From NCBI GenBank assembly GCA_051294905.1, contig CM119372.1, positions 29,698,001 to 29,762,000 of the forward strand: a DNA stretch of 64,000 nt, in the 5' to 3' direction. Position 1 is the first letter of the stretch; every line of letters starts with the position of its first letter. Below, piece after piece: positions 1 through 28,372 of the stretch. The notes below the pieces were generated by a model that was not told the origin of the DNA, did no database searches, and saw only the letters and a program-made list of their open reading frames with translations. The translations under genes and the position numbers were made by a program. This DNA is from Botryllus schlosseri. Lineage: Eukaryota.

Positions 1-7
1 AGAGTTG

Positions 8-30
8 GGTACTTGTGAAATAAGTGCCCG
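8..30 (+). repeat. Left terminal inverted repeat (23 bp, starts GG)
   Basis: GGTACTTGTGAAATAAGTGCCCG, immediately after agagttg; imperfect inverted match to 38988-39010. Confidence 0.8.
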
Positions 31-296
31 GAGGTCTAGGCGGCAATAGTTGTTGCACCATAAAATGGGTGTGTAGTAGGATAGTAAGTGTTTTACATGT
101 ACATTGAAATGAGGGTGAAAAAATAACTAGGTCTGGTAAGGAACAAGTGAAAAAAATAACCCTGTCATAAGAATAACACGGGATTAAAATATGAGAGAGT
201 CAGTACACATGAAACGACAAGAAAAAGGGGGGTTTGATCCGCTAAAGACGATGGGGAGTTGATCGACGCCACATGTCGTATTATTTACTTGCGCAG

Positions 297-1246
297 ATAC
301 GCGGAAAAGAACATACAATGTGTTGAGTTTGGTCGAATCGGGTGCACTACTAAACACACAAGATTGTGTACTATTTCTGAGAAATCACGGGTTGTTGGTG
401 CAGAAGATGAAATGCAAGCGATGTAAAAAAATAATGAAAGAAGAAAATACGTCGACAGGCGACGATGGGTTTAGGTGGCGATGCAACCCCTGCGATACTA
501 CGGCGACTATAAGGAAACACTCGATATTCGCAGGAAGCAAGGTAGAACTTCCCAAATTGTTAATATTATTCTACTTTTGGGCCCATGACGCGTTGCAAAC
601 CCAAATTGCGCATGAAGCCGAGATTAGCCAGCGTTCAACGGTAACCTGGTGCGGCCGATTGCGAAAACTTTGTACGGCCGAATTTCACAGGAATAAGCGA
701 CGTTTGGGAAATGAAGGCGGCTGTGTGGTCATTGACGAAACGCACTTAGCTAAACGCCGGACTGCCTCAGACAAGGGACCAGCCGTTAAAGCCATTTGGG
801 CGTTTGGGGGCATAGATAAAGCTACCGGAGAAATGTTCATTGAGATAACTTCTGACAGGACTGCCGAAGTATTTCGAAAACTCATAGTAGAAAATGTGGC
901 GGAGGGGTCCACAATTCTAACCGATGCTTACCCTTCTTACAAGGGCATAGAGAGCTGGGGGAAGGGTTATATACACGGTGTAGTGGACCACTCCCGTTGG
1001 TTTAAGGACCCTCGGACAGCTTTTTGTACTAATGAAATCGAGGGGGCCTGGGGCCAGCTTAAATATCACTTACATAGGTCTCGTGGGTTAGCACGTCACC
1101 TTTTGGCCGATTACGTAGGGGAGTTTTTGTGGAAACGTCAACATCAAAAGACTGACCGATTCTTGGCACTCCTGCGCACCATACACAATGACCCACGGTA
1201 TAATTTTGACAAATTTGATGGGTCTCCTGTATTACCACAATTGTGA
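297..1246 (+). CDS. Merlin/IS1595 (ISXO2-like) DDE transposase 1
   Basis: Zn-ribbon CKRC...WRCNPC, HTH-like segment, catalytic VVIDETH / ILTDAYPSY / HGVVDH...TNEIEGAW, all intact. The frame is open upstream of 320 (TRKRTYNVLSL resembles RKRRNLFNL of transposase 2) but has no ATG before 407. Acceptor-like ttatttacttgcgcAG ends at 296. Confidence 0.92.
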
Positions 1247-1375: not shown

Positions 1376-3892
1376 ATGGACCTCCTTCCTCATTCTCTGT
1401 CTATCCTTATTGGTATCATTTGTACATCTGATTTGTTGCTGCATACGGCGGCGAAAGGCATGCACGGACTCGCAGATCCTGTAACAGGTAGAGCACGATC
1501 TTTCACTCAGGGGACGCTAGGTGAACTACGGGGACCCCTGCCTGATGAATGGATCACCTTAAATGATACACAATGGGAGGACTATCACTTGATGAGCATC
1601 TTCAATAAAACGGCGGAGCGACATGTATATAGACGGCCTGAGTTGTTTTACAGTAAGTCATTTGGTTACGTAGTGGCTGAACGATTTTCATTACAACAAA
1701 TGGCGTTTCCACATGGAAGATATTGGTCAAGCGTACAAGAATTTGAACGCACCTGTCTATGTCAGCGGCACCTGGGTCAAATTACGCCCAACATTTCCTA
1801 TGATGTTCTTAAACAAACGAACCTGTTCGTGCGCCCAATAGGATCTTATAGGATTCGCTGGTTCTGGAATGGGGACCAATACATGTCGTTTCATGACCTT
1901 GGCAAGAATTACTCTATGTTTGCTCTTACCAAATTTAAACTAATTATGATGAGACTATTCGAAAGTTATTCAGCTGTTGAAGCTTCATGCCGTCAAAAGC
2001 CAATGGGAGATCGGGACAGAGCCGAAATGAATGAATTGAATAAGTATAATGCCAGTAGCAATAGTTTTACACAATGCTGGCATCTAGTACAAAAAAGAGC
2101 CTACCGGGGCACCTATTGGCAACAATTGTACTCCTGGAGGGAAAAAGGTATCATAATAGGAATCTGTACAAGGTGTGATTTTAGAGGAGTTATCTCTGCC
2201 CTGGAACCAAATAAGGCAGATATAATCATCCAAGAAATAGTAATGACTACAGTAAGTGATTGGCAGTATGTGCGCAGTCCGTTGATACCATGCCGGGCCC
2301 AGGGGGGATGGATTAATCAGGATTGGTTTGAGCACTTATGGCCAGGGGGTGCTGTAATAGCCCATTCGTGCAACTTCTGGCCAGGAATGAATACCACTCT
2401 ATGGGGTGATCTACCAACGACAAATTTCCCCCCCAGAGTAAAATGGATACAACCGTCTTTTCCAAATCTGGATCACAGTGTGTATGCTAATCATGGCAAT
2501 CAGGGCATGAGGTGGAATAACCTTTTTGATGGTGTGCCGACTAGGTTTAGGGCATCTACATCAACATGGGTACCTTTTTCCAGGCCTATGTGGAAATACT
2601 TCCCCTCTCTTACTGCATCGGATGAAGCATGTAAAAATAGAATATCACATAACCAGGATTTGTGTCGCGACCCTGTGGGTGGACCCATTTTGAAGGCAGC
2701 CTTTTGGGACCATGTTCATTTTGATCCGGAGCTAAACTGACCACGCTTTCCAGGGGGTCCAATAGAAATTAAAGGTGAATTGGTATCAGGAAATACCGCA
2801 CAACGGGGAACGCGTAGAAGGCGTAAAAGGTTCCTGTCCGGACTGATATGTTTAGTATTCGCTGTGATATCCACGATCGCCGTCGTTGCGACAGTTTCAT
2901 CCCAGTTACATGAAGAGACGGTGGATCTTAGCCGACAAATAAATAATAGAATGACACAGGCCACGCAGAGGTCCACTGCACTAGGAAGGAAGATTAACGA
3001 ACTCTCTCTACTGCAAACAGCTCAACGACAAAAACTGGATCAAACGATCGCTACCATGGAAGTAAGGGCATCACTAACAAATAAACGACTTGTACTAATG
3101 GAAAAGTACATTGAAAGAAACCGACAAATGATAGTACGACAAGCCACAGCATCTCTGACCTCTTTTCAGAACTATAAGGAAATGAGTGACGCCGAACTAG
3201 CCATCGACCGATTGGTTTTGGACGAATTGGCTAATTTAACTGGCAAGTTAATATTTGACTCCAGCAAAGTATATCTCACTAAAATCCGACAAGGAACATT
3301 GCGGATAAAAGAACATGCTCAGCAATTAACAGCCTATAGGGACTCTTACATCAATGAGACGAATGACATTGGTATGGAACTACGTGCTAATCGTATCAGT
3401 CTAGATCAAGCCCAACAGAATGTGGATTTGGGTTTACAAGTTTGGAGAGAAGATCTGAATAAGAGTGTGTACATGAACATTTCTGACTGGCGATATGAGA
3501 ATATTACAGTGAAGCCTTTCGAATTTGTTGGAGGAGAAGAATTTATGAAGAACTTTGGCCAGACAATAGAAGAAATTTCACAAAATGCCGGCAGTTTGAT
3601 AAAAACGATAGGAGATAGCACAGGAGATCTACTACAAGATGGACTTGGCTCGGTCGGTGGTATATTTAGTAAGGGATTGAGTGGTCTTTTTTCCGGATTG
3701 GGGTCCGTGTTAATGCCGGTGATTTTGATATTGGGGGCTGGGATCATCCTGTTTTGTTGCTGTCGTTATAGCAATCTCTGCTGTCCTAAGTTGAAATCTA
3801 AGGTACAAAGGCGGAACACGAATACTCAGTTGACAATGTACATATCATCGGTACCAACCTCCGTTAAAACAGCCAAATCGACAAGAATGTAG
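1376..3892 (+). pseudogene. env: Envelope/fusion glycoprotein (SU-TM), one reading frame interrupted by a single TGA at 2738-2740
   Basis: ORFs 1376-2740 and 2780-3892 are in the same frame. N-terminal hydrophobic signal, N-glycosylation sequons, RRRRKR furin site followed by hydrophobic FLSGLICLVFAVISTIAVVA, heptad-rich region, Gly-rich membrane-proximal segment, TM VLMPVILILGAGIILF and CCC. Confidence 0.8.
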
Positions 3893-3978
3893 TGCACGCA
3901 TATGTACTCAAAGATTTTACTTTTATAAAATTTAATTTTTTCATAAGTCCACAGATATACTAACTAATTTATAATAAT

Positions 3979-6900
3979 ATGAATCGTTACCTTAAAATAT
4001 GGATGGTGCTGGCAATAACCTTAACACTACACCGAGGATATCTGCAAACTCAGGGCCAATTATTGCCCCTATCTGCCATGCGTGTGGTTCCCAGGATAGC
4101 ATTTAATCTTACAGGATGGACAACGTTCCGGTATCAAGGTCTCAGATACATCCGCCTTAATCGACTATTCAAATTAAACGAGAGTTGGCCAATAGGTGAA
4201 ACGGAAAATAATTTTCCAATATACGAAGAGACGCCCGAATTTGGTCCAACACGAGCTAGCCAAGATCGATTGTACAAGTTATTTGCACCCTCGGGGTCTG
4301 ACAAGAGGTATTGGAACAATGTTAGACAATACGAAAGAGAATGCGGGTGCAATCGGAAACTATCAAGAATATCTCCCGATATTACGTTGGCAGCCTTTAC
4401 CAGAACCACAACATATCGTCGAAAGAATAACTTTGGTTCAGTACATACATGGAAGTATGTAGTAGGAAGGGAAGCACACGGCACTATGGCTGTGCCAGGT
4501 CCGATCCTTCGGATGATCTCTCCTAATGCTACTCCACAAGTTACTATACACCAGCTGTTGACAGTTTACAAGTTATCAGTAATGAACCTCTTGGCACAAT
4601 ATGCAACAGTAACAGCAAGGTGTCAACAGCATTCGGAAGGAATCGAGGGGTGGAAGGTCGACAAAGGCGAATTTAGTGTATGCGTACTCGAAAATATTGG
4701 CGGGATGCGATGTATAGGATGTGCATATTATCCAGACAATCGGGCAGTGAATACACTGTCCAGAGACTTTGTGTTCATGGAAATAGATAACAGCATTAGA
4801 GGACCAGGAACAAGAATGCAGGAAACCTATTCTTACAGTCAATGGCCAGCGGGAGTCAAGCTACCCAGGCTACATCATGATATAATTTGGCTGAAAGCTC
4901 GCAACGAAACAGGCCCCAGGGAGAGGCCAGCAAACTTTGATGGTCATACTTGGTTTAGATTGAGGATTTACGCCCTTCGCGAACATCTAAATAATGATAC
5001 TCAACGGATAATGGGGAAGAAAAATTTTCCGACTATGTTGCAAGGCAGCATAGAATGTGAACGCAAGAAAAATAAGAAGGTTTGTCGTAATTCAATAGGA
5101 AGTTTGAAGACGGCCTTGGCCTTTAAGGAAGTGTTATATGATCCATATACAAATCAATCCGTGTATGCAGATCATAGCAATGGTCGCTTACAAATTGCAT
5201 CCCCAATACCTGCAGGTCAGGAATCTCCACTCAAAGTATGGCCTAAGAATCTACCCGATTGTAAGCAACCCGGTAGATTAGGCAACCTTATCCTGACTGC
5301 ATCATTCAAAAGCAATGGGCAAAACACAAGGAATATTGACTATTATCTAGCCCGCCTAGGAATGTTTTACGTAGAAGTAACGAAAAGGCGTTTACGCCAG
5401 TTATCTTTGCCCATATATAAAATGCGAAAAAACCTGGGGAGGTTGGACAGGTCCATAACTGGTAAAGAGATGGAGTCTCTAAGTCAGGCGCTACGGTCAG
5501 CGTTGACACCTCAGAAACTGAGTAGGATAAATAAAGAGTTACTGAGCTATATGTCAACGCGCAAGCTCATAGAGGCGCAGCTTCATGATATACGGATGTT
5601 CCGACCTGGTGTGGCCTACAAAGCCATAATATGCGCTGGAATATTGGTGTATACGCCTTATGCCTATAATGACAATAACGAAGTCAGAACTAACTCTGAA
5701 ATGCCATTAAGTACCGCGGAATCAATAACGACAAAGGCTGTAAGTTACGAAGGAACCACTCGAAAAGTGTCTCCTAGCTCCGTAATGCCACGAAGTAACG
5801 CGGAAGCAATAACGACAAGGACTGTAAGTTACGAGGGAACCACTCGAGAAGTGTCTCCTAGTAGCGAGACTGGTATATGGTTTAATTTCACTCCTGTTGT
5901 AACGACTCCAGAACCCACTGCGACAATGGTAAAAACCATAACAATTGCTGAGGAAAGTGTAAGAATGACGAATCAATACGATACTAACCACTATAACTAC
6001 GATTATATAGAAGGTTATGACGAAGGATTTGACTATGCCGGTTATGACAATAATACTAGTTTTCAAGACTCTGGAAATTACTACTACAATTATTATGACG
6101 AAGACGTAGAATATGATGGTTCATTAACACGCAGGCCCATACCCGTAGCTTATACTACGAATTCCACAAATATTATTGAAACTACAATGGCGTTACCAAT
6201 GATTGAAACTCCAACGTCGACCAAAAATACTCAATATACGATCGAGTTAACAACGGATACAACAATTTCCACGCCAAGAACGTCTGCACATGCGTTGGAT
6301 AGCATTACGACCGCATTATCAACTACTACAATCACACCAAATACTAGAGAGTTGACATCGGCCATTGTTATTTCCGGAACGACTTCATCGACACCACTCC
6401 CAGCCATATTGACTACTGTGCAGTCCTCACGCGAAAATAACACTAGCCCAAGACCAATTGCATCTATTACTACATTCTTAACTGCAGTGAAAACTGTTAG
6501 TGAGCAAGAAAGACGCAGGACGAGTCCCACAAATATTTTCACAACTGTGGAATCGTCTACGGCTATATCAACACAGATGGACGCTCAGAAAAGCATGGGT
6601 ATTGCTGCGACAGGAGTCACCTTTTCCAAAAGCGAGTTAGCAACACTTATACCAATGGGGAGCACTGCAAACTCAAGGTTACAATGGAATACCATGACTT
6701 ATCAAACACCCACAAAAAACGGTGAAATGATAGGCTCCATATCAGTGCCAATAAAGAAAACGCCCCAGATTACGCAGACACCTGAGTCTTATATACAATT
6801 GAGTCGTCACACAAATCAACTCATGGAGACGACACCGCCAAGAGCGCATGTCAATGTGCTGTTTGATACAACCCAAGTAGCAACGACAGTCGAAACGCAC

Positions 6901-7467
6901 CAAAATTTTGTCACCAGCAAGTCCCGCTCTAATACAGAACCAGATAATTTAAACAAAGAGCAAGACCTACAGGTAAAAACTAAATCAACATCAATGCTTT
7001 CATCAGGGGACTATCAGAGCGAACCCACATCAGTAAGTAAAAATGATGTGATCAGAAGTTGGAAGAGTACTTCCAATAGTGCACTTTCTTCAATTACACC
7101 CTCTATCGAAGAAGAAGGAAAAACTACACTCAGTATACCGCATACCTTACCTACGGCCAAATATGACAGACTGGACCGAATTACATTTGACTTCTATGGA
7201 CGACTACACAATCTACAAGAAATGGAACAAGGATATGCAGCAGGTAAAAATATTGTTGATATTAACAATAGAAAGGATTTAGAAAAATCACTTAACAATC
7301 ATGCCTTGATCTTTGCGGTTAGCGTAACAGCCATGGTAGAATGTATGTATTTATGTTATGCGAAATGCGGGAGAGTTGCAGCTAAAACTTATCTTAGAGA
7401 GGTTATTCGGCGGAATAACCAAAAGACGTATATTACAGCAGTAACATTGCATGAAAAACTGAGATAG
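3979..7467 (+). CDS. Type I membrane glycoprotein: env-SU paralog domain + Tyr/Asp cluster + Ser/Thr mucin stalk + C-terminal TM
   Basis: Signal peptide; RYWNNVRQYERECGCNRKLSRISPDIT aligns to env RYWSSVQEFERTCLCQRHLGQITPNIS; Thr/Ser-rich ~5680-7150; hydrophobic ALIFAVSVTAMVECMYLCY near the C-terminus. Confidence 0.75.
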   Translation: MNRYLKIWMVLAITLTLHRGYLQTQGQLLPLSAMRVVPRIAFNLTGWTTFRYQGLRYIRLNRLFKLNESWPIGETENNFPIYEETPEFGPTRASQDRLYKLFAPSGSDKRYWNNVRQYERECGCNRKLSRISPDITLAAFTRTTTYRRKNNFGSVHTWKYVVGREAHGTMAVPGPILRMISPNATPQVTIHQLLTVYKLSVMNLLAQYATVTARCQQHSEGIEGWKVDKGEFSVCVLENIGGMRCIGCAYYPDNRAVNTLSRDFVFMEIDNSIRGPGTRMQETYSYSQWPAGVKLPRLHHDIIWLKARNETGPRERPANFDGHTWFRLRIYALREHLNNDTQRIMGKKNFPTMLQGSIECERKKNKKVCRNSIGSLKTALAFKEVLYDPYTNQSVYADHSNGRLQIASPIPAGQESPLKVWPKNLPDCKQPGRLGNLILTASFKSNGQNTRNIDYYLARLGMFYVEVTKRRLRQLSLPIYKMRKNLGRLDRSITGKEMESLSQALRSALTPQKLSRINKELLSYMSTRKLIEAQLHDIRMFRPGVAYKAIICAGILVYTPYAYNDNNEVRTNSEMPLSTAESITTKAVSYEGTTRKVSPSSVMPRSNAEAITTRTVSYEGTTREVSPSSETGIWFNFTPVVTTPEPTATMVKTITIAEESVRMTNQYDTNHYNYDYIEGYDEGFDYAGYDNNTSFQDSGNYYYNYYDEDVEYDGSLTRRPIPVAYTTNSTNIIETTMALPMIETPTSTKNTQYTIELTTDTTISTPRTSAHALDSITTALSTTTITPNTRELTSAIVISGTTSSTPLPAILTTVQSSRENNTSPRPIASITTFLTAVKTVSEQERRRTSPTNIFTTVESSTAISTQMDAQKSMGIAATGVTFSKSELATLIPMGSTANSRLQWNTMTYQTPTKNGEMIGSISVPIKKTPQITQTPESYIQLSRHTNQLMETTPPRAHVNVLFDTTQVATTVETHQNFVTSKSRSNTEPDNLNKEQDLQVKTKSTSMLSSGDYQSEPTSVSKNDVIRSWKSTSNSALSSITPSIEEEGKTTLSIPHTLPTAKYDRLDRITFDFYGRLHNLQEMEQGYAAGKNIVDINNRKDLEKSLNNHALIFAVSVTAMVECMYLCYAKCGRVAAKTYLREVIRRNNQKTYITAVTLHEKLR
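5701..5862 (+). repeat. Two in-frame copies of an 84-bp (28-aa) unit in the mucin-like ORF
   Basis: MPLSTAESITTKAVSYEGTTRKVSPSSV / MPRSNAEAITTRTVSYEGTTREVSPSS. Confidence 0.9.
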
Positions 7468-7494
7468 ATTGTGAAATAATTACTGAATTATTGT

Positions 7495-7511
7495 AAAGGT
7501 AGAAGTGAGGG
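7495..7511 (+). promoter_or_regulatory. Polypurine tract (plus-strand primer) followed by LTR-like start TGTTAT at 7513
   Basis: aaaggtagaagtgaggg-t-TGTTATG, 28 bp after the last envelope-type ORF, the canonical PPT position. Confidence 0.65.
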
Positions 7512-10500
7512 TTGTTATGTGTTGTGTTGTGTTCGGTCCGTTTTTTACGGTTTAGAGTCCATGTGAAATTAACCATTAACCTAAATTTAATTCCGTTGAG
7601 ATAACATAGTTTAAAAATCATGCTGTATTTGCTTATGGAAGCTTAAAAGTGTGCGGGATTTAAGAATGTACGAGGCAAATTCGCGGTATAAAAGATGCTT
7701 ATGCAACGAATATCATTGCGAAACACATAATTGCGAAATTTTCGGATGGTATTGCTAAGCCAAATCAGGATTGAGTAATACATTACTTTGTAAAATATGG
7801 GAGCATATGGCGTGATCTTCGTAAGATGCAACCATAAATGACTGTGGGAATGTAAATTGCAATGGCATATTGACGCACAGGAAAATATAAAATTTAGCAG
7901 AAACGGCAAAATACGACCCCAATTGGTGGGTTGATCACGCCATTGCAAAACTCTTGCACAATAAGGCCACAAATGATGGTGGGAAAGGAAGCGCTACAGT
8001 GGAAAATTGACGAACAGGAAATATTTAACTACAGCAAAATGGTGAAATTTGACTGTAATGGGGGGCTTAATCATGCCGGAGTACGAAGGGTAGCGACAAA
8101 AATTTGCTTGATGAATGTTCGGATGTACGTCAGCCCCTGATTTACGAAAATAGCAAATTGCTCGTGGTGATGGGGGGCGGATGCAGGCATGTCAACGATC
8201 TTCCGCTCATAACTGAATATAACCCGAAGCGCAGGGACAGAAAATTCAGTTCACTCTACACAGAGCTGAAAGGCATGAAGAGCCTAGGAAGTTGGCAGGG
8301 TTTGAAAAAACGTTAACTGAGACTGATGACGAGTTGTTCAAATCTCATGAACAATCGCATTAGGACGTTATGTGAACGTTAGATAGAGTCTTTACTATAC
8401 GAGACAATGACTCTAACAATTAATTGTCAGCTTGGTAATTGACCAAAGATATTATAACCGTTGTTAATGCGTGATGTTAACAGTTATATAAACCCACGCT
8501 ATATAATTATAGACCAGGGGCTGGATCAGACTCAGCACGCAAAAACATCCAATCCAATAATCAGCCGTCACAAGATTAGGATCATTGTTTTATAATACTT
8601 GCCCTCCTCAGTGCTGCACTACTTGCAAAGAATGCGGTACTACTATGAGATAAGTTCTCTACATTGCACCATTATAATGTGACGTCATAGAACAAAGAGG
8701 ATTGAAGATTATCTGGGCTGAATATAAAGCGTCAGTGCTGACCAATCGAGTGCCTCTTTGTAAACTAAAAAGAACCATACTTATAAACGAGTTCAATTGG
8801 GGGACGGGAGACATATTTGGCTCCATACTGGGCCTACCATATTGTGGAAATTTGAATAAGAGGACATAGGACAAGCCTATCTATACTGTTTTATGGCACA
8901 CAGCCAGCCTGCACGGGGTGACTGACCCTAGATAAATTTCCAAAAGGCATGGTGCACCAAGACAACAAACCTGTAGTGTTTTTACCACAAGGATGAAAAC
9001 GGCTAATATAATTCTGTCTCACTAATTGAATCGCCAATATTGTTGCGCTGAATATTACCTGGAGCATTGAATCAATAGGACGAAATGATATCATCTTCTC
9101 TGTTTCCGCATTAAATCAGGTGGCTACACTTGCATTGGGCTATGAACTGAGAAATGGACTGGCAGTTCTTATCGAGAATACGAATATCGCGGACTTCTAA
9201 TTTTATAACTAACAAATAGGTATATAGCCATGCTCTCTTGCTACATTTTCAAATAACATTTGCTACTTTAGGCAAAGCAATTGGATATATGAGAGATAGG
9301 GATACATTTTAAACAAATCGATGTCTAGGAAAATTTCGACTTTACAAAAAGAAACTGATGCTCACTTTCCTATAAAGGGGAGAGAGAAAATCAACGTGGC
9401 ATTCATAACTATGATATGAAACGTGATTATATTCACCTGCTTCACTGGTAACTCTAATATACAAAAATAAATCCTAAATACTCAGTACTAATTCAATATC
9501 GACGCTAAAAACTTGTCCGTAAAAATTAAAATGAGCCTTCGGAAATGCGAGGCGGTCGGATTTGATGACGAATATTTCACACGGAGCATATTGCAATAAA
9601 GAATACAATCCTGAAATCTATCTTTATCAAATGACCAATAATGTAAGGGACACTACATTGATTTTTTAGTAGTGTGTATACGCATGTGAGCAATAGTTTC
9701 GAACAATAAAAATTTTAAAAAAAAAATAAGCTAATATCACGAGGTTTGGAAGCCTGTATGGAATAGGGTATGACTCTTGCTTCACCTGGCTTAATGCCAG
9801 AGGTCGACTATTTTTCGTAAAGCAAGCTGCATCAATTATTGCATTCGTTCTGCGTAGCTGGAGTATAAATGCTTCATGTAGCGTACTGCACACTGCACGA
9901 AGTTGACAATAGTAACTAGACTACAAGAAATGCCAATGATCTCAAATTGTACGCTGCTATACATAGGTCCATGATCTCTCGAATCACTGGCCTCAAGCAA
10001 CTTGATGTTATATGAATCGACTCGACATATCAGAAATATGAATTGACTTTTAATTCGGAGTAAAATTAGTTAACCAATTTCAAGTTATCAAATAATCAAT
10101 GTATAAAAAGATCGTTGTATCTAGCATATGTTCGGATTGTTCATGCAACATTTATATGATCCATAAAAGCGACCAATCATCCAATGGTATTGCAGTTTAT
10201 TTGGCATCCATTTGACATAGTGTCACGAACATATTGATTGCGGGTTAAGAAGTCGAAGTTAACAGCCAATGCTAGTGTAAGCTATAGTGTTTTATTCAAT
10301 TTCATCATTATTGGCTGGTATAATAAACTGTGCAAGCAATACAGCGCATTATTTGTGGACTTATTTAACTCAATATATCTTCATCGGTTAAATACCAATG
10401 ACCGCTCGATATGTATTGCAGAAAGATAGTAAAAGTACAATGATGTAATTACGTCTTATGACTGGTAAAAGCAATTCAATCCGAAACTTAGTTTGATTAG

Positions 10501-12105
10501 AGTCAACTTCACTAATCAGTTGACTTGACTCGATCAAAAACTGCAGTGACTCGAAATGACTCATGACTCGAAAGTTACAATATTGGATCAAGACATAACC
10601 AATCGGTGATTTTAATCAAAAGGTTTATTTTAGTTGCAAATATGGAAGGTGTTTCGACCCTGACTGACTACGACACTTCAGTTACTGCATGCACTACATT
10701 ATGGCATTCATTTACGTCAAGCAGGGAATACCGCTTCGGGAATCTGACCTATTGCATAAATGGCTAGTTTGAAACATGTCTTTCAACTGTAGGTACTTTA
10801 TAACATCTAACTAGAACAGTGAGTTAGGTTTACGACAAGAATAAATAACTTGTGATATTGCGACCAAACGAAATACAGTATCACATTTGAGACAACATCG
10901 TACACATACCTACCTCGGTGATAGCTGACCGTAAGCTGAGGGCAATCTTAACCTGGTACATCCATATATATTCCATTGGAAAGGTACGCCTTTTGTAAAT
11001 TCTGGTATATCCCAAGAATTACGTTATCCCGGTTGAGAAACACTAACTTACAAGTTCAAAAAATTAACTATGCCTATATACACAACTCGCCTCGTCGGTC
11101 TCAACTTAACATTGCGTCAAAGTAATTCAGTAAGCAAGCGTTTGCCACAACGAAGACGAGTCGCAAAGATGATTTCCTGTACGGTCAAACTCATATTACG
11201 CTGCGGGCCGGATAATGGTAGAATAATAACAATTCTGCTCGAGACGCAAAGTGATTGATCCACTTCAATGCTTTAAGCTACTATGACTATAATATTGGAA
11301 CCATTCTCAAAGCTCCCTTAGGTGAAGCATTACTGACATGGGCATGGTATCTAAATACTGTGTGACAAGAGCCACCCCCATTAATTGGTCCTTCTAGAAT
11401 TTCTGACATGATGGAACAATATTTGGGGTGAATCTAGTTATGCGCATTCGTATTTCGGGTCATAGTGCGTTCCCATTAGCACAATAATGACCTGTATACT
11501 GAACATTGCCTTGTTTTTTTTAGTAACTAGGGCGTGCAAACGCTGGTTATGCGCGCTCGGCGACTTGATACGGGAGTTTAAAAGATCGCGACGAAATAAT
11601 GAGATTGATTTTGATTTAATATTATGGTTTCTGTTTTCAAAATAATCTATCCGAACACGCTCGACAATACAATTCAGTACTAGTAGAAGTAATTTCGACG
11701 CCGCACTGACATATGCTATAGAAGTGAGGGGGATATTCCTATAATCTGGCTGCGAAATGCCGCGTACAACGAATTGATTTTGGCTCTAATTTAGTAAGAT
11801 TGGACAACTTGACAATTCTGACATCAGACTTGTACGTCACCACGCGCAAAGTTCATCTTGGCATGTAAGCTGCAAGAAGTTTCAAGAACCTCATATCGTG
11901 GGCCACAATGCACAGTCTATTGTCGTTGACTTACCTATGAAGAAAATTTAATTTCGAATACATGGCGTGATACTGGATTAAGAAATAGGTAATCTAAACA
12001 AAACAGATATCAATTTCGATATGGAAAATATTTTAATCCTGGCTGACTGAGTCACTTTATTTGGTATAATTACTGCATTGCGTTTTACTAAGGTAGGGTA
12101 GGAAG

Positions 12106-12638
12106 CAGTGTTGGGATGACGAGTCAATTGGGAGAAATGTTTTGACTCGTGTCGCGAAGCAAAAATTTACGAGCCAATATCAGGTCATAGAATAAACGGT
12201 GTCAAATAGACCACTATAGCTTGTGTATACTCGAATTGTTTCCTCAGATCATAAATAAATTGACCGCAGATGAAACTATCACGACTTACGCTGTCATGGT
12301 AGTTATAAGGATTATTTTAGATAACAACATCTCTCTGTTTCATTAAAGGGCTCATTGCTTACGTTGTGCAGTGCGCACCCTTCTATATTTTGGTTGATAA
12401 TGTCTGACTGTAGCATTTATCTTTACAATTACTCACGAATTTTACTTGCGCGTGATTGATACAACATCTTTTGGCGCGTATAATTAACTATATGTTTGTT
12501 ATTTAATTCAATGTAGGTGCTAAAATTCAATTTGACTCGAGTCGATGCTTGACTCATGGCTTGACTTGGCCTGACTCGATTCAGGGTCAGCCATGACTCG
12601 AGATTACTGGTGACTCGAGGGAATTGATACCAACACTG
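12106..12638. mobile_element. hAT-type MITE (CAGTGTTGG...CCAACACTG, gactcga-rich) inserted in the giant element
   Basis: TIRs plus 8-bp TSD gtaggaag/gtaagaag; same family as 52959-53927. Confidence 0.85.
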
Positions 12639-15600
12639 GTAAGAAGTACTGCTTCAAGAATTCTGTGCTAAAAAAGGCATGTTCTTCAAAATTAATTATA
12701 TTATCGAAAACTAAATAGAACCGTTGACTTGCCGCCGACGAGTAAATGAACAGGTGAAATATCACAATCGAAGGGTATAGAGTATCACATTAAAATAACA
12801 TTATACCATGTTGCTCGCTCGTCAGTGTTTCAAACCATACTGAATCATAGACCTACCTTTGCGATATCTGGTCTTAGGCTCATTGTATTACCGATCTGGT
12901 ACATCCCTATAAATCCTATTCGAAGGTTACACCGTGTTGTAAGTTCTGATACATCCTATAGTGTGCGGTAACCTTGGTGGAAGAGCTCTGGTCTATAATT
13001 CTAAAATCAACCTGTGCTTTTGCAAACGACTTGTCTTGTCTTATTCAAGTATAAACACTGAAGAACAATAAGACGACGCCAAGCTTGTACGATAGCAGGG
13101 CCGAGTCGCATAAATGACTTCCTGAATTAAAAGAACTCGTAATACATTGCAGTACCACTGTTATTGATCAATAACAATTATGTACGTTGTAACTATACGA
13201 GCTGTGAAATTGTAAATTCACTTTAAATATTTCAAGCTATGACGGACCTCGGCTTTGAAAATAAGAGTGCTTGCTAGTAGTTCTATAGTAGCATCGCCTA
13301 TTTCAAAACTAGCACGCTGGTGAACCCTGCAATGTTAACATAAATACATTCAGGATGTCAGGACATGATCAAATTCACCAGAAATAGTTTTGTGGGTATA
13401 GTAAGCTGTGTAACGGGGGTTGTCTCGATTAATGGATCCCTCCGAAATATTGGAAATGATGGAACGATTACTAGAGGCAGTTCCAGTTATACGTATTCAT
13501 TGATAAAGACAAAAATAACTTACATGATTTTTGGCACTAGGCAATTTTTTGATTAAATTACTGAGCTGAAATATTGAAATTACTGAGCTGAAATAAGACG
13601 TAGAAGGTATTGTCTCATATTATGTTTTAACTACCGTATATTTACTTATATGTAAGTACAATTGAGAGCAAAATGCAGAGTTTGTGCCCGTAACAGAGGT
13701 GATCAAACCGGTCGAATATTCCTAAAATAGAAGTAAGATTGGTCAGATTTAAATCTACTTAATTAAATAAATAGATTACAAAGTGTTACTGAGTAGAGCT
13801 TGAGCAAGGGTGGATGTTATTGCTGCGATGGCCATTAGCAAGTATGAAGAACAGGTATTTTGTTAAAAAGAGCTATTAGTGCATACCGACAGCTACAAGA
13901 GTACGTTTCAAGTATTATTGAAGACGGTGTATGAGTTATAGATACATAGGCAGCCTAAATGTTGTCCACTAATATTAGAAAATTGTGCAAAAATGATACT
14001 GACATGATACTGCTAGAATGGTTCTTTGGCTTCCGCGGATAGTGAAACCTACATTTTTGAGTTGTATTTTGATATAAGTGGTTACTCGAAACAGATTGGT
14101 TTTGTGAAAAAGATTATTAGTTCATTGATAGTGTGTTGGCATTGATGACACATGTTATTTAAAAACATAAAAACAGGTGCCGTTCTATAACAGCACAAAA
14201 TAGCGTTATATGTAGCAGTGCGCGTTTGTTATTGTGTCTTCTAGAAGGGATAGTGTGTATGGACCAAGTTTAACCTGCCATGGTCAAAGTCTAGATGTGA
14301 CCTTGTGGCAAATTGGTTGGCTGTAGGGTGCATTAAAACTTGACCATAAATCATCGGATCAAAATCAATCGGAAGGTGGCATTTAAAAATTGGTCACATT
14401 ATATTGGAAAAATATGAAACAAGTTGTCATATTCGATGGCATAATTATGCGAATAAGAACATAGTTTTGTGAATCAAAATAATTGGAAGCGCGAAAATTG
14501 ACCCATGGGCCCTCGGCGCCACTGCACTGCTGGGTTAAACTGAACAAATATGAATTTGATCGAAGTGGCGCAAATCTGAACTGTTTGCCATTTGACCATT
14601 TGCCTTGTGTTGTCTTTAACTACAGGTCTATAGCTTTGAAAATAAAAAACCAGTTGATATAACGTCCAAGTGGAATAGAACCGTAATAATAATTAGAGGT
14701 TAATGTCTAATTTGCATATATTTGGTGTAGTGCATGTGGTGATACCGTTGACGATGGACCAAAAGCAATAAAATATCTCAGGCGTGTGAAAGTAGCAACT
14801 TACTGATTAAAATATTCAGACAGACGGATATTCATTTATCAGTTAATTAAACTCAGAGATATAAAAGAACCAATTTTTGCCAGGTATGTTTGTTTTTGAC
14901 CTTTACTGCCTGAAATAAGTAATAAATACACATAGAATCTTAAATGATGGGGTTCGCCTTGTTTTAGGGATGAAATTATGGGCATAGGTACGACAAAGGG
15001 ACATGATAAATTGAGGAGCGATTATCGCCGCCAATACAGGTAGCTTACCATTAATTTGTAGATTATGTAATGACACTTGGTAGCTGAAAATGTCGGCTTT
15101 AACTGGTTGACTTTACACTGATATATCTATCAAAATAATGGTTGAATGATAGTTTATAATCAAACCGCCAACTCTCATAATTGAATAATGTGCTCCAAAA
15201 ATTTTAACAGATGGAAAACTGAACGTATATTGGGTCATAAAGAGACTAAAGGGTAGGATGCTAGTTTGCATACAAAATAATATTTCCGTCTTTTACATTT
15301 TAAGGTTAAAAATTTTTTGAATCCAATTGAGATCGTTCATTTTGTTCATTTGAGCTGTGCGGGAAAACATAGTAACGACTGCATAATTAATCGGCAAAGT
15401 TGTACTTATAATTAAATTAAGGACAAACAGCAAATTTGCAGATACCACATTTATGGAATGCGTCAGCCATATCTGACTTTCCAAATTCATTGGTGGCAAC
15501 GGGCACAATTTGTTCAGCTTTTGGGTGAGAATTACAGTGACATAAATATATAAACATTAACAATAAGTTTATCTGAACCGCAGGAACACGCACTAAATTT

Positions 15601-17138
15601 AACAATCCACGGTAACGAGTATAAAATGGTGCAAATCATTAGTATGCGTAATGGGTCATGAATAATTTGCCGCAGGCAACAGCGATGTTGCAAATTGGAA
15701 AATTGACGTTTCCAAAAAGATATCATTTCTAATTATAAGTAAATAAGGTTACTAGCTTTACACCTGTTGTCAGGGTCTATCAAGTACTTGTGAATGTCGG
15801 CCCTAAACCTATAAAAGCTCTAATCAGCTAATTGAAATTGATAATAACTTGAGGCGCTATGATCTAATTTATTTAGTTTATTCTAGATGTTTTGTCGTCT
15901 ACTGGGGTCATTAACACCAGGCTGATATTGGTCTTACTTTTCCGAAACTATCGACTTATAGCTTGACCTACCGCTCGGATTTTGTGGGACACTGCTAACA
16001 CGGCATAGCGGGTGATGAGAGGTTTTTAGTTGTCCAATATTCATAACAAACGAGAAAGTGCGCATCTAGTCAGTAATTCCTCAATTTGCGCGCAGAACAA
16101 AAGGGATACGAACCCGAAAGTTCGGCCTAATTTATTGGAATTGTCACGTGAACACTAAGCAAGTAGGCACATCCGAGTCTATTTGCGATTGATGGTGCTA
16201 GTTTGAAATTGTCAACCCTAAAGAAACAGCGCGCGCCATGCGTTGAAGCTCTATTTCATATACTGACAGTTCATGATTTTTTGGGTATTAGGCCGTGCCT
16301 ACAATGGAAGTTGGCGACTTGGTGTTTTGATGAGATAGGAGGGATAAGGTTCAATGAAACTCTTTACTATATATAAAAGATTAAAAACAAATCACGCAGT
16401 AGTTAAAGGCCAGACATATGCTCCACGTAAGTCCTGGTCAGTCAGTCGGATATATAATGATCCATTACAACCTTAATAATACATTATTTCTACGGCCTGA
16501 TTAATAGAAGTAACAACATCAATGGGTTAATATTAAATCCGCGAAATAATTGTGTTTAATAGTGGATGTACAGCCACAAACTAGATTGCAGCATAGTAAA
16601 TTCTCACTCAAATTGAGGTATGAATGATTGATAACGGAATTTGATGACTTGTACTGCACGGTGCGATGTGTGGGCATCGGCTCCTGCGCAAATAGGTGTA
16701 ATTTTGTTAAAAATCAGGTATATGAACTATATGATGGTGTTCAGATTGTAATTGCTATAAACCAGACTATAATTACGGCACTCTATGACCATCAATTGGG
16801 CGGATGGCTGGGCTCTAAAGGACCCAGAATCATTTCATGAACTAGTATTGATCGTGGATGGTGACTTTGGAAAATTAAAAAACTTTTTTCGAAAAATTTT
16901 CGTGTAGTGAATGGTTTCTAGCCGTCAAATATCTCGAATGCACTATAAATATAGCAACAAGCATGTCGTCATTTAACATTACTATGCCACAGTTTATCAA
17001 CACTCGACAAAATAAATGGAGCCTTCCTGCTGGTTACTTGGAAAATTAATGACACATGGGCTTATTGCATTTCCACAGGCCTGGTATATATAAAGCCCAG
17101 TAACCACAATACATCTCCTTGTTGGTACAATTGTGGCC

Positions 17139-17708
17139 ATGACAAGTGCTGATGCCATGGAGCCCTCTGTTCTAGATGAACAGATTTGGACCGGAAGGTG
17201 GATTGTTGTTATAAAAAATATAGATGAAATTCTCAAATCATGCCAACCAACGCCTAAAGCAGAAGATAGTGATACCGAAAAGGACGAAAATGAGGGGAAT
17301 AAACAAGAAATTGACGAGGCAACCTTAGAAAGCTACTTCGAAAGGAACCCGTCGATCTGGGGAGATGATACAGACTCGGAATTAGATCTCACTGACTCGG
17401 ATGAAAGTTCGAGTACCTTGTCTGGCTCTGGACATGACTCTGGACATGATGTTATAGAATCCTATCTTTTCCCAGATCATGAATTGAGACCTTATCCGAA
17501 TTCCGAATCCAGTGATTTGACAGATTCGAATGAGAGTCTGAATACCATACCCGATACGGGTGGCGTCCCTGAGTGGGCTGATACTGACTCTGGAGTTAAT
17601 AGTAGCGATTCCGATCTATCCTCAGATCATGAACAGTTACGATCTCTTGACGAGGCAACTCTCAGGCGCCTTGATAGAATGTTTTGGCGCCCCTGGAATA
17701 ACGAGTAA
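17139..17708 (+). CDS. Cargo ORF, acidic Asp/Ser-rich protein of unknown function
   Basis: Intact ORF with TATATATAAAG ~50 bp upstream; DEATL motif occurs twice. Confidence 0.65.
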   Translation: MTSADAMEPSVLDEQIWTGRWIVVIKNIDEILKSCQPTPKAEDSDTEKDENEGNKQEIDEATLESYFERNPSIWGDDTDSELDLTDSDESSSTLSGSGHDSGHDVIESYLFPDHELRPYPNSESSDLTDSNESLNTIPDTGGVPEWADTDSGVNSSDSDLSSDHEQLRSLDEATLRRLDRMFWRPWNNE

Positions 17709-17956
17709 ATTTGGAAAACTATGCGATCAAAATGTACAAATTGATGTGATCAGCAAAATCTTAAATGTACATTAACAATGTTGCGACTGTTACAAGATAT
17801 GTTATGTTTTCTGTGCCTCATAGTGAAACAATTACATACTGTGGACGATTGTTTTTTTGTTTGTAACTATGGAATGATGACAGGTTAGTCAGCAGATTTT
17901 AAGAGAGAAAGAACAATTAGGCTGGTATGTGATACAAAATAAAAGTTTGGTTTAGT

Positions 17957-18325
17957 CAAGGCTGGCCAACCTTTTTTTAGCCTAAGGGCCACATTAAATT
18001 GAAGAAATACTGCGCAGGCCACTACCGCGCGAAGCGCTAAAAGCTTTTGAAATTTCTAGACCAAGTATATTGTAACTTGACTGTGTTGAGGATTGCCGTA
18101 TATCATTAGGCTGAGTTTACGCGGAGCGGGCTATGCGGCGCATGGCCATATCGATAACGTAAGCTGCGACCAACATGCGTCAGTCTTTCCGTGCTTAGGA
18201 TTCATAGTCAGCGATGTTACTGCGAATGCAAACGCAAGGTCACACATGTTCAACGACACTTTTTCCCTTAATTGCGAATATAGTTAGGCTCAATAATAAA
18301 AAAAAATAAAAAAAAAATAAAAAAT
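17957..18325. mobile_element. Truncated hAT/Charlie-like MITE fragment between cargo ORFs
   Basis: Starts caaggctggccaaccttttt...agggccaca, resembling the ends of 55619-57214; no matching right end found. Confidence 0.5.
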
Positions 18326-18592
18326 TGGCCGTTTTTCCAGGGTCACAAAATGGAAATTAATTAGCCGGCCCTGAGTTAAGACAATTAAGAATTGTTAGAT
18401 TGACAAGTGGCCAAAGATGACACCTTTCTTTACCTGGTAAAGGAATAATTAACCCCAAATAGGACTAATAAAGAGTTAGCAAAATTCAGTGTTGGGAATA
18501 TCATTACCGATATCTTACAATAATCTCGGCTGAAAGAAACATTATTATTTTTTGTTAAGGTGTAAAAATAACACGGTGTCTTAAATTAAAGA

Positions 18593-19111
18593 ATGTCTGC
18601 CTCAATAACTAAAGAACAATTATGGGAGCTATCAATTGAAAATATCGAACTATGGTATGAGGTACTTCGAGGGGTGAAAAAGACAGAGAGATTACAACGA
18701 TGGAATGATTTTTTCAAGGACATTAAGAATAACACTAGACATTATGCGGAGACCTTCTTCGAAGGAATGGGAGCAAGTAATGAAAAGGTTAAAGAGTGGC
18801 CATGGCGAAATGACTATCGGAGAAAACACGTAAAAAATCGAAAGGTAGCAAAAGTAAAACCATATTCACAAAGAAAACCTGCCTCAAACAAACAGAATAG
18901 AAGGGAAGAAATAGAGACCAGCTCCTTAACATCAACAAGTAGTCCTTTCTTGACGTCCTTACTGACGCCACCTTCAACGAGCCACGACTTGCCGCATAAT
19001 AGCAATGTTATGTCAGATGGGACGTATACATCGTTTGGTAGTATCATGTTTCGGCAACAGCCACCTACTGCTCAACTTCAACCTACAACAGCATATCATG
19101 ATGATGGTTAG
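18593..19111 (+). CDS. Cargo ORF, unknown (helical N-terminus, basic middle, Ser/Thr/Pro tail)
   Basis: 172-aa intact ATG ORF, co-oriented with the cluster. Confidence 0.6.
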   Translation: MSASITKEQLWELSIENIELWYEVLRGVKKTERLQRWNDFFKDIKNNTRHYAETFFEGMGASNEKVKEWPWRNDYRRKHVKNRKVAKVKPYSQRKPASNKQNRREEIETSSLTSTSSPFLTSLLTPPSTSHDLPHNSNVMSDGTYTSFGSIMFRQQPPTAQLQPTTAYHDDG

Positions 19112-19283
19112 ATAAATTCTAGCATATTGTTTGACTCACATGATTGGTGAGGTTGTATGAATAAAAGTTGAGCTAATGTATTTTCTCTGTTTTACATTGA
19201 TTTACAATATGAACCAATCTATTGAGAGTTGTATGAATAAAAAGGAAACATTCTGTATTCTAGAGTTATAAATAGTGAACTAA

Positions 19284-20156
19284 TTGAAGAAAGAAATGTG
19301 CTACGGGCTATTGTGCGACCCTAATACGGATCACAAGGTTGTCTACGAGTGGGCAATGCAGTTCGATCTTACGCAAAGGCAGCAGATAGTAATGGAAACC
19401 ATAAAAACTGCGCCGGTTCGGGATCGTTTGATGAGTCTCTTGTTCGGCACTTGTGAGCGGGACAATCCAAGGGTACAATATTGGCAACAATGTATGTACA
19501 CCAAGGAGGACTGGACAAAAATAGGAAAGCCTTTTCACCCGGTTGGGAGCGGTGAATGTAAACAATGTTACCTTATGAGACACGTAAAACCGTATTTCAA
19601 GAATACCGGGCAGATTTTGGAACTTATGACATTATGCCATGATTATTTAAAAGAAGCTTGTAGTATGCACAAAGGACTAGATCAAAACACCGAAAGAGAT
19701 AAAGGACATATAGTGCTTTATGTGTTATATCCAGAAGCGATAATAACCGCCATAGCTCTCCTGTTGCAACAATATCGGGGGGAAAAAAACATGCGAACAT
19801 TTTGTTTTACGAGATGTCGGATGGACGCAGAATTTGAGTTTCTATTTGGGGGAAATCTAGAACAATGGAGATTTACATACGGGTCCACGAGCACGTTTGG
19901 TTATTTGGGAGGCGTTTTTATTCTACCGATTGACCAAGTGTCGGAATCAACCTTTAAAAACTCGTTAAAAAAAGAGGGAGACAAACAAATAGTCAAAAAC
20001 ACCAATTCGGAAACTACCTTGATGTTTGATATTGAATCTTCAACCAGTAGAGACAGTAGGTTTCCAAACAGACCAGAGGCTCCGACCCGAATGGTAGCTT
20101 TACGGAGACCCAGTGTAGATGGATCCCATGCTGCCTCTAGTGGTAATATGGGCTGA
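19284..20156 (+). CDS. Cargo ORF, paralog family A (first ATG at 19296)
   Basis: NPRVQYWQQ and IVLYVLYPEAIITAIA match NPRLLYWKQ and LIMWIIFPEVQIYALA of 23296-23850. Confidence 0.7.
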   Translation: MKKEMCYGLLCDPNTDHKVVYEWAMQFDLTQRQQIVMETIKTAPVRDRLMSLLFGTCERDNPRVQYWQQCMYTKEDWTKIGKPFHPVGSGECKQCYLMRHVKPYFKNTGQILELMTLCHDYLKEACSMHKGLDQNTERDKGHIVLYVLYPEAIITAIALLLQQYRGEKNMRTFCFTRCRMDAEFEFLFGGNLEQWRFTYGSTSTFGYLGGVFILPIDQVSESTFKNSLKKEGDKQIVKNTNSETTLMFDIESSTSRDSRFPNRPEAPTRMVALRRPSVDGSHAASSGNMG

Positions 20157-21517
20157 TTCCAAAATAAGCTACTATTAGTTTGATCTAGAAATTGTATTGA
20201 TTGATCTGGACTTTTAGGGCTAGCCTAAAAGATAAGCCATGATAACTGAATTATTTAGGGCTGACCGGTGGTGGTTTAGGACAACTTATCAATTCGGCAC
20301 TACTACCAAAAGGTCAAACTTAACGGAAAAAGTATAGAAGCCGGTTATAGTGAAACTTGAGATTAGCAAAAGTAGAAACTATATACCTGTATTTTACGAT
20401 ATATATATACTCAGTTATTAATACAGTTTCCCTTTTTATTAAATGATTTCGATACATTGATCAATCGCTGGGATAATTCCCACCACCACCTCCCCTAGAA
20501 TAACATCCCGGGGACTATGAGAACTTGATACTTGAATGCAAGATCGACCTATCTTTATTGCCAAAACTTTTTAAATTCGAAAAGAACTTGTTATTGTAAA
20601 TTATGAAAAACTGCACGTTTTTTGTTTACTGTTATATTGAATGTTATGTACGTATTTTCGGCTGCAATTTTCGTGTTGAAATTTAGTCTGTAATGGCCCC
20701 AGACCACCTACCCTATCACAAATCACCTCGTGTTCATACTTAAATGTTATGCTAATCGAATTATATTTTATAAAGGCTGACGTGAGCGTAATCTTTTCTG
20801 TTTTGCCCACAATTGTCGCTCTGCCAAGATCTTTTTGTATGAGCCTCACACCAAATTGCTGCTAATTGAGTTATTGCTGTTATTACAATTTTATTTGATT
20901 ATGTAATAGTTTTGTAAAGTAGTCTTTTGAAAATTACTCACATTCCTGTCTCATGGCACCCTTCCTCTAATGGTCTCTATGAGACGAAGTTGTATATTAC
21001 TTGTATAATTGACCCTTGAATTAATTAGTTTCGCCGTCCAGAGAAACTCGTGTCAAAACATGTCTTATGGAAGGGAAGGCAGGGATGATGATTAATATTA
21101 CTTTTTAATAATGTTTTAATTGATATGTTGTATAACTTTTCCCACTAAAAAAAATCTTCAAAATGATGAAATATCGGAATTTGTTTATAAGTTATAAAAA
21201 TTAATAAAAATGACTGTCAAAACCAAAAGAGAAAAGCCATATTCTAAGAAAATCTTCAAAGGAAAAAATTATATAAATAAAAACCAGAAGAAAAATTTAC
21301 AAAATAATAAAATCCCTTGTGGGGGGGAGAGAATTATTGCCTAATAAGTACTGGGTGATTAATAAATGAATAAATGTCTTTATGAGTATGGAGGATACTT
21401 TATATAAGTGCTGAATGAAAATTAAAGGCATTATATGAATCTTGAAAATTGCTATACCGAGAAAATGGAAAATTGTACATATTTTTAAGGTATTAATAAA
21501 AAATAAAAATAAAAGGA

Positions 21518-22084
21518 ATGTTGGAATTTGATTATATTGAAGGTTACGATCCATCGAATTGGTGTCTTTTGTACGATGTATATGATGAATTGGATCTATT
21601 GAATCTGAAAGAATATAACAGCGAATATGAGAGATACCAGTTAAAAGAAAGAATATGGGAATTGCTTACGGACCGAGTTGATTGGGTTAAACAAACAGAC
21701 AATGGCCTAGCAGAGGCAGCCCTAGATGAGGAAATAACCCCAGAAATTTTTGATATATTCAATCGTGTGGTAGAAGAGATATTTGAAATAAGAGCGAAAG
21801 AATACACCTCTTTTGGAAGAAGAGTCATGTTGTATGAATTGATTAGAGGACTTGTGATGAAACTTACAAACACTAATATAACAAAGGATGTGTACCAGGA
21901 GAGAGAATATTGTAAAGATCCGCCACATATGGAACAATGGAATTGTCAAAATAATTTGGGAATAAAAGGCTATTCAAGTTCAATACATTGGCGAACAAAA
22001 AGGATAAGGCGAATAGAAATACATCCTTACCCCTACGAAAGGGAAAGTGTGAACATTGACTTTATAATACCGGAACAATCATGA
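21518..22084 (+). CDS. Cargo ORF, paralog family B
   Basis: RRVMLYELIRGLVMK...QNNLGIKGY matches RRVVYEVIRGVVMK...QKNLGVKGY of 25040-25753. Confidence 0.72.
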   Translation: MLEFDYIEGYDPSNWCLLYDVYDELDLLNLKEYNSEYERYQLKERIWELLTDRVDWVKQTDNGLAEAALDEEITPEIFDIFNRVVEEIFEIRAKEYTSFGRRVMLYELIRGLVMKLTNTNITKDVYQEREYCKDPPHMEQWNCQNNLGIKGYSSSIHWRTKRIRRIEIHPYPYERESVNIDFIIPEQS

Positions 22085-22181
22085 ACAATCATGAGTAATG
22101 ACAACGAATGTAAATAAGATTTTGACTTACAAAGGGCACATTTTCCAAAGGTATAGAGTAACAAAGTGGGTTATCTAATTC

Positions 22182-23231: not shown

Positions 23232-23295
23232 TTTGAAGAAAATGTGGAATTTCGAGGTATTGATTTAGTATTGTCCTCTGTTCAACTAGTAATAG

Positions 23296-23850: not shown

Positions 23851-23918
23851 AACTTAACTTTCCGATGTTTATGTATACAGAAACTACTTTTAAAAAGACA
23901 ATTAAGTTTTAAATAAAT

Positions 23919-24866: not shown

Positions 24867-25039
24867 AACAATGTTGTCACTATGACCAGTATCATTCGAT
24901 ATAAGTGATTTGAATCTTTTGGGAAACAATATAGGCGTAGATGAGTATACTAGTGTTATAATCCACATGTTTATAAAGCTATGAAATGTTTCTATTTAAG
25001 TACATATATGAGTGAGAATTATAGAATAAGCATATTATT

Positions 25040-27765: not shown

Positions 27766-27911
27766 TGGAGCAGGCAGGACTATTATTTTGTGGCATGAAT
27801 GCTCTTGATGCATATGTATAATACATGATGTTACTAGTTACTTTTGCGCGTATGAATCAATTATTCGTAAAATTGAACATATGATTTTAACGTACTTTAT
27901 TCTGTATTAAG

Positions 27912-28367: not shown

Positions 28368-28372
28368 GAGGA

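Follow-up and report, generated by a model that had tools for sequence, protein, structure and literature searches.

A 39-kb element of Botryllus schlosseri with Merlin-type ends and retrovirus-type genes

The inverted repeats lying 39 kb apart in the 64,000-nucleotide stretch of the Botryllus schlosseri genome analysed here (hereafter referred to as the window; GenBank assembly GCA_051294905.1, contig CM119372.1, positions 29,698,001 to 29,762,000 of the forward strand) were confirmed as the actual ends of an animal element that is 39 kb long and present in many copies. This element is likely to act as a Merlin transposon at insertion and to be pararetrovirus-like in its replication. Retrovirus-type gag, RT and env-like genes are combined with Merlin ends, in the absence of an integrase and LTRs, and this combination appears to be undescribed in the literature searched; a full-text search, with a scope excluding Repbase reports and most subscription journals, retrieved no such element. 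Known reverse-transcribing viruses either use an integrase acting at LTR ends or are episomal, and neither route seems to be that of this element. The element is not a member of Merlin, Metaviridae, Retroviridae or Caulimoviridae.

The left TIR (8–30, + strand) is identical at 17 of 23 positions to the reverse complement of 38988–39010 (right TIR, − strand). Both start with GG and have the blocks ACT.GTG and TGCCCG in common, reproducing the count and the two blocks of the first-pass annotation, which had described these repeats as imperfect 23-bp TIRs flanked by an exact duplication. The left target-site duplication is visible as seven bases (1–7, + strand), and the base preceding the window is an A, as the annotation had predicted, so the duplication has a length of 8 bp. 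The sequence AAGAGTTG is thus present at both ends of the element as an exact duplication, its right copy lying at 39011–39018 (+ strand). Host-type DNA had also been expected to the left of position 1, and the 1,499 bases on that side yielded no match to 25 element copies or 23 element proteins. The identity of the window TIRs is not in itself significant, as 6.6% of 500 shuffled versions of this 23-mer found a match of at least 17/23 somewhere in the window; the in-register 8-mer duplication has a p value of about 2e-5. The strength of the case comes from the family.

End pairs were defined as left and right matches in the correct orientation on a single contig, with at least 40 matches per end search (45 genome matches for the left-TIR pattern); unpaired left matches fell outside the duplication test, save one included among six later pairs. 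The 31 end pairs comprised 27 with an exact 8-bp duplication, one with a 9-bp duplication, one with a match at seven of eight positions and two with none. All but one of the 28 exact targets were distinct (27/28), and mispaired flanks, used as a control, matched in 2 of 930 cases. The six additional pairs all had exact 8-bp duplications, bringing the whole set for the genome to 34 of 37 (33 exact 8-bp and one 9-bp). The terminal GG was found in 31/31 pairs, and TIR positions 1–5 were invariant in the same 31. The occurrence of the same ends with different exact duplications across the family identifies the window repeats as real element ends. The proposal that these ends are the main evidence for insertion by the transposase is therefore upheld by the family, but not by the TIR identity in the window taken alone. 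For a different copy, of 8 kb, both DNA contigs and RNA reads contained an empty locus (joint 1783–9829), the comparison suggested in the first-pass annotation, with the target present once; the flank of this copy is itself a repeat, and the site may be paralogous. The 27 target sites were 75% AT, with an A-rich first half, a T-rich second half and a weak palindromic preference. Merlin elements have GG-ended TIRs, sometimes very imperfect, and 8–9 bp duplications (PMC8101967, in the part available). A fit to Merlin/IS1595 rather than to a retroviral integrase, as initially put forward, agrees with the GG ends, the 8–9 bp duplications, the PF12762 transposases and the lack of integrase and LTRs in 25 copies. 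A subterminal TIR-like motif (140–151, + strand), 132 nt inside the end, is present in 23/24 copies and at the same position in two of the four permuted sister copies described below; it is likely to be a second transposase site.

All 23 scanned ORFs of the element are on the + strand. The Merlin/IS1595-type transposase 1 (263–1246, + strand; first ATG at 407) has an intact D-D-E triad, a PF12762 match with an E value of 4e-10 and a dN/dS of 0.09. Homology begins about 30 codons ahead of the first ATG (window 263–406), and the start of this gene may therefore be non-ATG or spliced. Transposase 2, located in the cargo block (23919–24866, + strand), is 38% identical to transposase 1, has a dN/dS of 0.16 and is also found in sister lineages. 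PF12762 scored above the cut-off in both proteins, and the triad was conserved in 6/6 aligned sequences. The element was likely inserted by its own Merlin-type transposase, one of the two encoded.

Two envelope-like genes follow. Gene 1 (env1; 1376–3892, + strand), interrupted by a stop at 2738–2740 in the window copy, is a single open frame in 14 of the 15 other long copies; it has a signal peptide, an RRRRKR basic cleavage site, a fusion-peptide-like hydrophobic stretch and a C-terminal membrane anchor, an anatomy that fits a class I envelope protein. Its atlas neighbours were class I fusogens (0.89–0.90, a weak match with low recognition), weakly suggesting that env1 may be a class I envelope protein. 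Gene 2 (env2; 3979–7467, + strand) has an N-terminal part paralogous to env1, a Ser/Thr-rich stalk and a C-terminal hydrophobic stretch, with a dN/dS of 0.22. An env relative was 62% identical. The next 9.6 kb or so (7468–17093, with no strand assigned) form a spacer without long ORFs that is poorly conserved between copies, only one short ORF cluster being common to 16 copies; an Rfam search of positions 1–39100 gave no matches. Within the spacer, 8929–9868 displays a 1-kb inverted similarity (66%) to flanking DNA at 55778–56760, which suggests, at the sequence level, that a host repeat has lodged there.

The cargo block (17139–31089, + strand) consists of intronless same-strand ORFs, including those for an LRR protein (22182–23231, + strand), a BIR-RING IAP (26066–27765, + strand; split in the window copy) and a ubiquitin E2 (29474–29929, + strand), together with paralogous small ORFs of no family. 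Four paralogous ORFs of 130–160 aa, matching no Pfam or atlas family, lie between 27912 and 31089, and the ORF at 30066 had no usable atlas match. The ORF pair 21518/25064 matched Bcl-2 weakly, and the pair 19296/23296 gave a weak match to PF20886. A small membrane-protein-like ORF (32272–32541, + strand) lies upstream of gag.

The gag gene (32550–35340, end approximate, + strand) encodes a capsid-like helical domain and a CCHC knuckle; the window frames deviate from those of the other copies near 35330. The zf-CCHC match (E value of 5e-4) was just under the cut-off. When the predicted capsid model (pLDDT 84) was compared with 48,161 chains, the best-ranked were capsids of retrotransposons and retroviruses, with Z scores of only 5.6–6.4, and a Foldseek search with this model returned nothing at E≤0.001. 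These data lend modest support to a putative capsid fold and zinc knuckle. The pol gene (35330–38737, + strand) comprises a protease, an RT with a YIDD motif, an RNase H and a Tpt1/KptA domain. Its frame is broken near 36920–36970 in the window copy, and is a single frame of 1122–1205 aa in 15/15 other long copies. Four Gypsy integrase-region queries found no match in 25 copies, the Tpt1 domain being followed by a stop. Repeats of at least 60 bp spaced more than 2 kb apart were confined to two of the 25 copies and were internal there; a plain Gypsy element was rejected on the absence of integrase and LTRs. The Tpt1 domain retains the Arg-His-Arg-Arg positions of 7kw8, which we take to be catalytic.

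Fifteen further long copies, of 34–40 kb, have the same gene order and are roughly 80–95% identical. The five core frames are all open in 11 of these 15, and the env1, IAP and pol frames are broken in the window copy. Mean pairwise dN/dS values (13–16 of 16 copies) were 0.04 for RT, 0.04 for RH, 0.09 for transposase 1, 0.12 for the gag capsid, 0.20 for env1 and 0.22 for env2, and ranged from 0.09 to 0.29 for the cargo genes. Purifying selection acts on RT, transposase and env, and the low values for RT and transposase indicate that both were needed along the lineages yielding these insertions. The shortest paired copies found, of 8–14 kb, have without exception retained the primer site and the gag start; there were no miniature TIR-only copies among the paired ends. 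Eight non-autonomous copies of 10–14 kb lack transposase, env and RT; each retains the two TIRs with an 8-bp duplication of its own, as well as the leader, primer site and Tpt1 end, with an open gag N-terminal frame of about 620 aa in 7/8. By analogy, these copies resemble defective interfering genomes.

In an RT phylogeny (FastTree, without named caulimovirus or retrovirus references), the lineages of this genome and the Tpt1-type relatives formed a single clade (14 of 142 rows, SH support of 99). The RT profile of this clade gave 192 bits for Ty3, 184.5 for CaMV, 122 for foamy virus and 111 for MLV. Pol proteins ending in Tpt1 were found in other assemblies (35–45% identity), and two marine metagenome contigs among 53 loci carried close relatives, on stretches too short to include ends or a transposase. 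None of 47 IMG/VR candidates was a relative, and the whole architecture was seen in one genome only.

Footprints of an RNA stage were found between the cargo and gag. A primer-binding site (32225–32242, + strand), complementary at 18/18 positions to host tRNA-Ile(AAT) plus CCA, lies 47 nt ahead of the small membrane ORF in a block present in all copies; its 17-nt core is found in 25/25 copies and the full 18 nt in 21. The sister lineages have instead a complement of tRNA-Thr(AGT), about 250–265 nt after the leader. Between leader and gag, variability peaks in the 6-nt window at the 3' edge of the primer-binding site, with 11 haplotypes in 21 copies as against at most eight elsewhere. Plus-strand transfer is a mechanism that can leave errors at this edge, and the variability fits such errors.

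A DNA copy of the 24-nt host spliced leader (31976–31999, + strand) lies 249 nt upstream of the primer site. The 24-mer was identified as the host leader because it was found at the start of 5,292 bulk RNA reads, after an adapter-like sequence (presumably the template-switch adapter) and before unrelated sequences, and because it precedes GTAAG at 2 of 30 inspected genomic loci, as expected of leader RNA genes. We take it to match the spliced leader of stolidobranch ascidians, a match for which the portions of the literature checked held no confirmation. Of 26 element copies, 22 carry the leader without a mismatch, three match it at 21–23 positions and one lacks it, and the flanks are variable; in one copy, it is fused to the next AG, as trans-splicing would produce. 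This leader copy likely represents R, the sequence with which the genomic RNA begins at its 5' end. The genomic-length RNA of Cer1 in C. elegans is not trans-spliced (PMC3315495, as far as the text was accessible), so such use of a leader is not the rule. The genome contains 236 exact leader copies; among 30 that were inspected, many stand in front of gag genes of sister lineages, and others with unrelated flanks could be retrocopies of host mRNAs. RNA depth across gag-pol was only 0–2 in one bulk run. Among the public runs listed as containing this DNA, none was of RNA, which speaks neither for nor against expression. Single-cell 3'-type reads pile up just upstream of the leader, which fits an RNA 3' end at this position, and are few near the right TIR. 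The sense strand contains 49 AATAAA signals, two of them near the right TIR (38914 and 38932), and this number is a real problem for a single 39-kb RNA.

The copies are mosaics of one another, and the pattern of linkage points to a circular map. In 16 copies, linkage breaks at 31–32 kb, between the last cargo gene and the leader/primer region, with four block sizes (rho of −0.39, permutation p of 0.0003; rho is −0.15 if the break is placed at the TIRs). The break was recovered in 15/16 jackknifes, the omission of one copy moving it to 24.5 kb, and its value was reached by 1 of 600 linear TIR-to-TIR simulations. The pol and transposase/env genes, 36 kb apart on the chromosome, behave as map neighbours; part of this signal could reflect co-adaptation of the core genes. 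The neighbourhood of pol and transposase/env is directly visible in a 14.7-kb copy with a deletion stopping a few bases ahead of the primer site: RH, Tpt1, transposase and env differ by 0.3–1.4% from one long copy, and gag and RT by 5–16%.

Sister lineages in the same genome, with RT identities of 90, 85, 63 and 47%, include four permuted copies of 38–44 kb in the order TIR-cargo-leader-gag-pol-transposase-env1-env2-TIR. These copies have GG ends and exact 8-bp duplications, and their left and right TIRs match at only 10–16 of 23 positions. Two further sisters have the gene order of the window and exact duplications, and a fifth copy, the ends of which were not located, has contiguous pol, transposase and env. 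The permuted order indicates that the same gene circle was opened at two places. In three of the four permuted copies, the transposase frame directly follows the pol stop, in frame, where Gypsy has its integrase; read-through is possible from the sequence, and this arrangement is not conserved in the others. The divergent lineage (RT 47%) has a different gene after pol and two leader-gag units face to face, with no Merlin match within 40 kb. The junction expected on a circle (right TIR, 0–20 bases, left TIR) had no pattern match in the genome assembly, and no right-to-left TIR junction was present among the 15 joints listed, of 209, in reads from four runs on the 8-kb copy.

We consider it probable that the element has the life cycle of an enveloped, reverse-transcribing virus with a circular DNA stage, and that its own transposase carries out the insertion. 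On the DNA circle, where the two TIRs would abut, transcription would begin at the spliced-leader site and yield a single long, trans-spliced RNA covering gag-pol, the TIR junction, transposase, env1, env2 and cargo. With its 3' end a little beyond the leader copy, this RNA would have the leader at both ends, as a terminal repeat. Host tRNA-Ile would prime the minus strand inside a Gag particle, and synthesis would switch templates among the RNAs packaged together. The resulting circle would have one promoter/leader/primer region; opened by the transposase where the TIRs meet, it would be inserted with duplication of 8 bp of target. The encoded enzymes would have to be active and the enveloped particles infectious. 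With somewhat less assurance, we favour a new family of animal reverse-transcribing viruses, enveloped, with a 38–44 kb RNA pregenome, the leader as terminal repeat, circular DNA and Merlin as integrase; this reading includes, at the same level of assurance, movement of the attachment site around the gene circle.

The closest competitor, which we nonetheless judge unlikely, dispenses with a transcribed circle: two RNAs from an integrated copy, one from the left end to the leader and the other from the leader to the right end, would be co-packaged and joined by template switching, and the transposase would insert the product. It needs no 39-kb RNA, and it would account for the 3'-type reads just upstream of the leader, albeit few near the right TIR, and for the poly(A) signals at 38914 and 38932. 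However, neither RNA would hold the whole outer TIR, positions 1–5 of which are nonetheless invariant in 31/31 pairs, the ends have no common direct repeat for a template switch, and pol, transposase and env are contiguous in the permuted sisters. Still less probable is a giant Merlin cut-and-paste transposon that captured Gypsy-like gag-pol and env genes and moves as DNA only, the retro genes being passengers or serving a side function. The ends and duplications are purely Merlin-type, composite transposons are known (Teratorn; PMC10175614, in the sections available), and the circle junction is absent from the assembly and from the 15 joints listed of 209, but no gene is more constrained than RT, the primer site varies together with host tRNAs, an RNA step is needed to place a spliced leader in DNA, the linkage break and permuted copies are unlike a linear DNA unit, and TIR-only miniatures are absent among the paired ends. 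Chance repeats or an assembly artefact, for which the shuffle frequency of the TIR match (6.6%) and the frame breaks of the window copy might speak, can be given almost no credence: dozens of loci share these ends but differ in their exact duplications, and public runs of nine studies contain the stretch or part of it. This explanation was rejected on the duplications across the 31 pairs and the read and contig evidence for the 8-kb copy.

The element has features of several known systems. Like Merlin/IS1595 elements, it has a PF12762 DDE transposase, GG termini, short imperfect TIRs and 8–9 bp duplications (PMC8101967, same portion). Unlike these simple single-transposase units, it spans 39 kb and encodes two transposases among more than 20 genes, with gag, RT and env-like ones in the set; its tRNA primer site, leader relic and linkage map point to an RNA stage. 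With Caulimoviridae, it shares a capsid-protease-RT-RNase H series without integrase or LTRs (PMC11363490, from the partial text), and the CaMV and Ty3 profile scores are close to each other (184.5 and 192 bits); a circular DNA stage, proposed in its case, would be a further common trait. Caulimoviridae, as portrayed in the material available, are episomal in plants and not integrated by an enzyme of their own, whereas the element has an animal host with spliced-leader trans-splicing, envelope-like genes, a transposase of its own and precise insertions of transposase type. Pfam gave no match to a movement protein in the element, and its length is, by our reckoning, about five times that of CaMV. 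The gag CCHC knuckle, the frameshifted PR-RT-RH of Ty3 type and the tRNA primer site upstream of gag recall Metaviridae; the lack of integrase and LTRs, the TIR ends, the 8-bp duplication and the position of Tpt1 after RNase H do not, and its RT forms its own clade in the sampled tree. Burro, a giant metavirid with a record size of more than 30 kb, carries env, BIR and ubiquitin-related domains (PMC6431247, in the extract available), and the element has env-like, BIR and ubiquitin-related genes too; an RNA of 39–44 kb would surpass this record. Retroviridae are separated from it by the profile scores (foamy virus 122 and MLV 111, versus 192 bits for Ty3) and by the absence of integrase and LTRs.

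Teratorn is a herpesvirus genome bounded by piggyBac TIRs, with TTAA targets and a proposed excision to a circle (PMC10175614, same sections). It is similar in having a viral-type genome between the TIRs of an inserting DNA transposase, and in the proposed circle; the element differs in its Merlin transposase, 8-bp targets and likely reverse transcription, of which Teratorn, on the same source, has none. Herpesvirus genes, piggyBac transposase and a TTAA target are all absent from the element, and Teratorn was rejected as an identity. DIRS-like elements have a tyrosine recombinase, RT-RH, inverted ends, a circular intermediate and an internal complementary region, and make no target duplication. 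The RT-RH without DDE integrase, the inverted ends and the proposed circular intermediate are reminiscent of these elements, unlike the protease and env-like genes; a DIRS-like identity was rejected on the 8-bp duplications, the absence of a recombinase from the Pfam matches of 23 ORFs and the lack of an internal complementary repeat. Kuafuorterviruses are, likewise, a distinct reverse-transcribing lineage in marine animals, described, in the part of PMC11673190 available, as having LTRs, an integrase, a 5–6 kb genome and IADD, VADD or LADD motifs; the element, with YIDD and without LTRs or integrase, was not assigned to them.

The element appears to separate the start of reverse transcription (internal leader and primer site) from the site of insertion (Merlin TIRs). 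If this is true, class I and class II transposition are united in one life cycle, and a retro-type genome can exchange one integration enzyme for another, as is often assumed in accounts of how LTR elements arose. Reverse-transcribed genomes would also have a higher size limit, a pregenome of 38–44 kb exceeding any LTR-type reverse-transcribed genome in the available part of PMC6431247. Annotation pipelines for transposable elements would split or misfile such elements. With dozens of recent copies, most of them open, every step of the proposed life cycle can be tested. Two observations concern DNA outside the element. A 791-bp inverted repeat pair, 92% identical, at 52104–54736 in the window is probably another transposon, and an 8.9-kb stretch beside the right end of one copy has a 99.99% identical duplicate 14 kb away, consistent with either a recent duplication or an assembly repeat.
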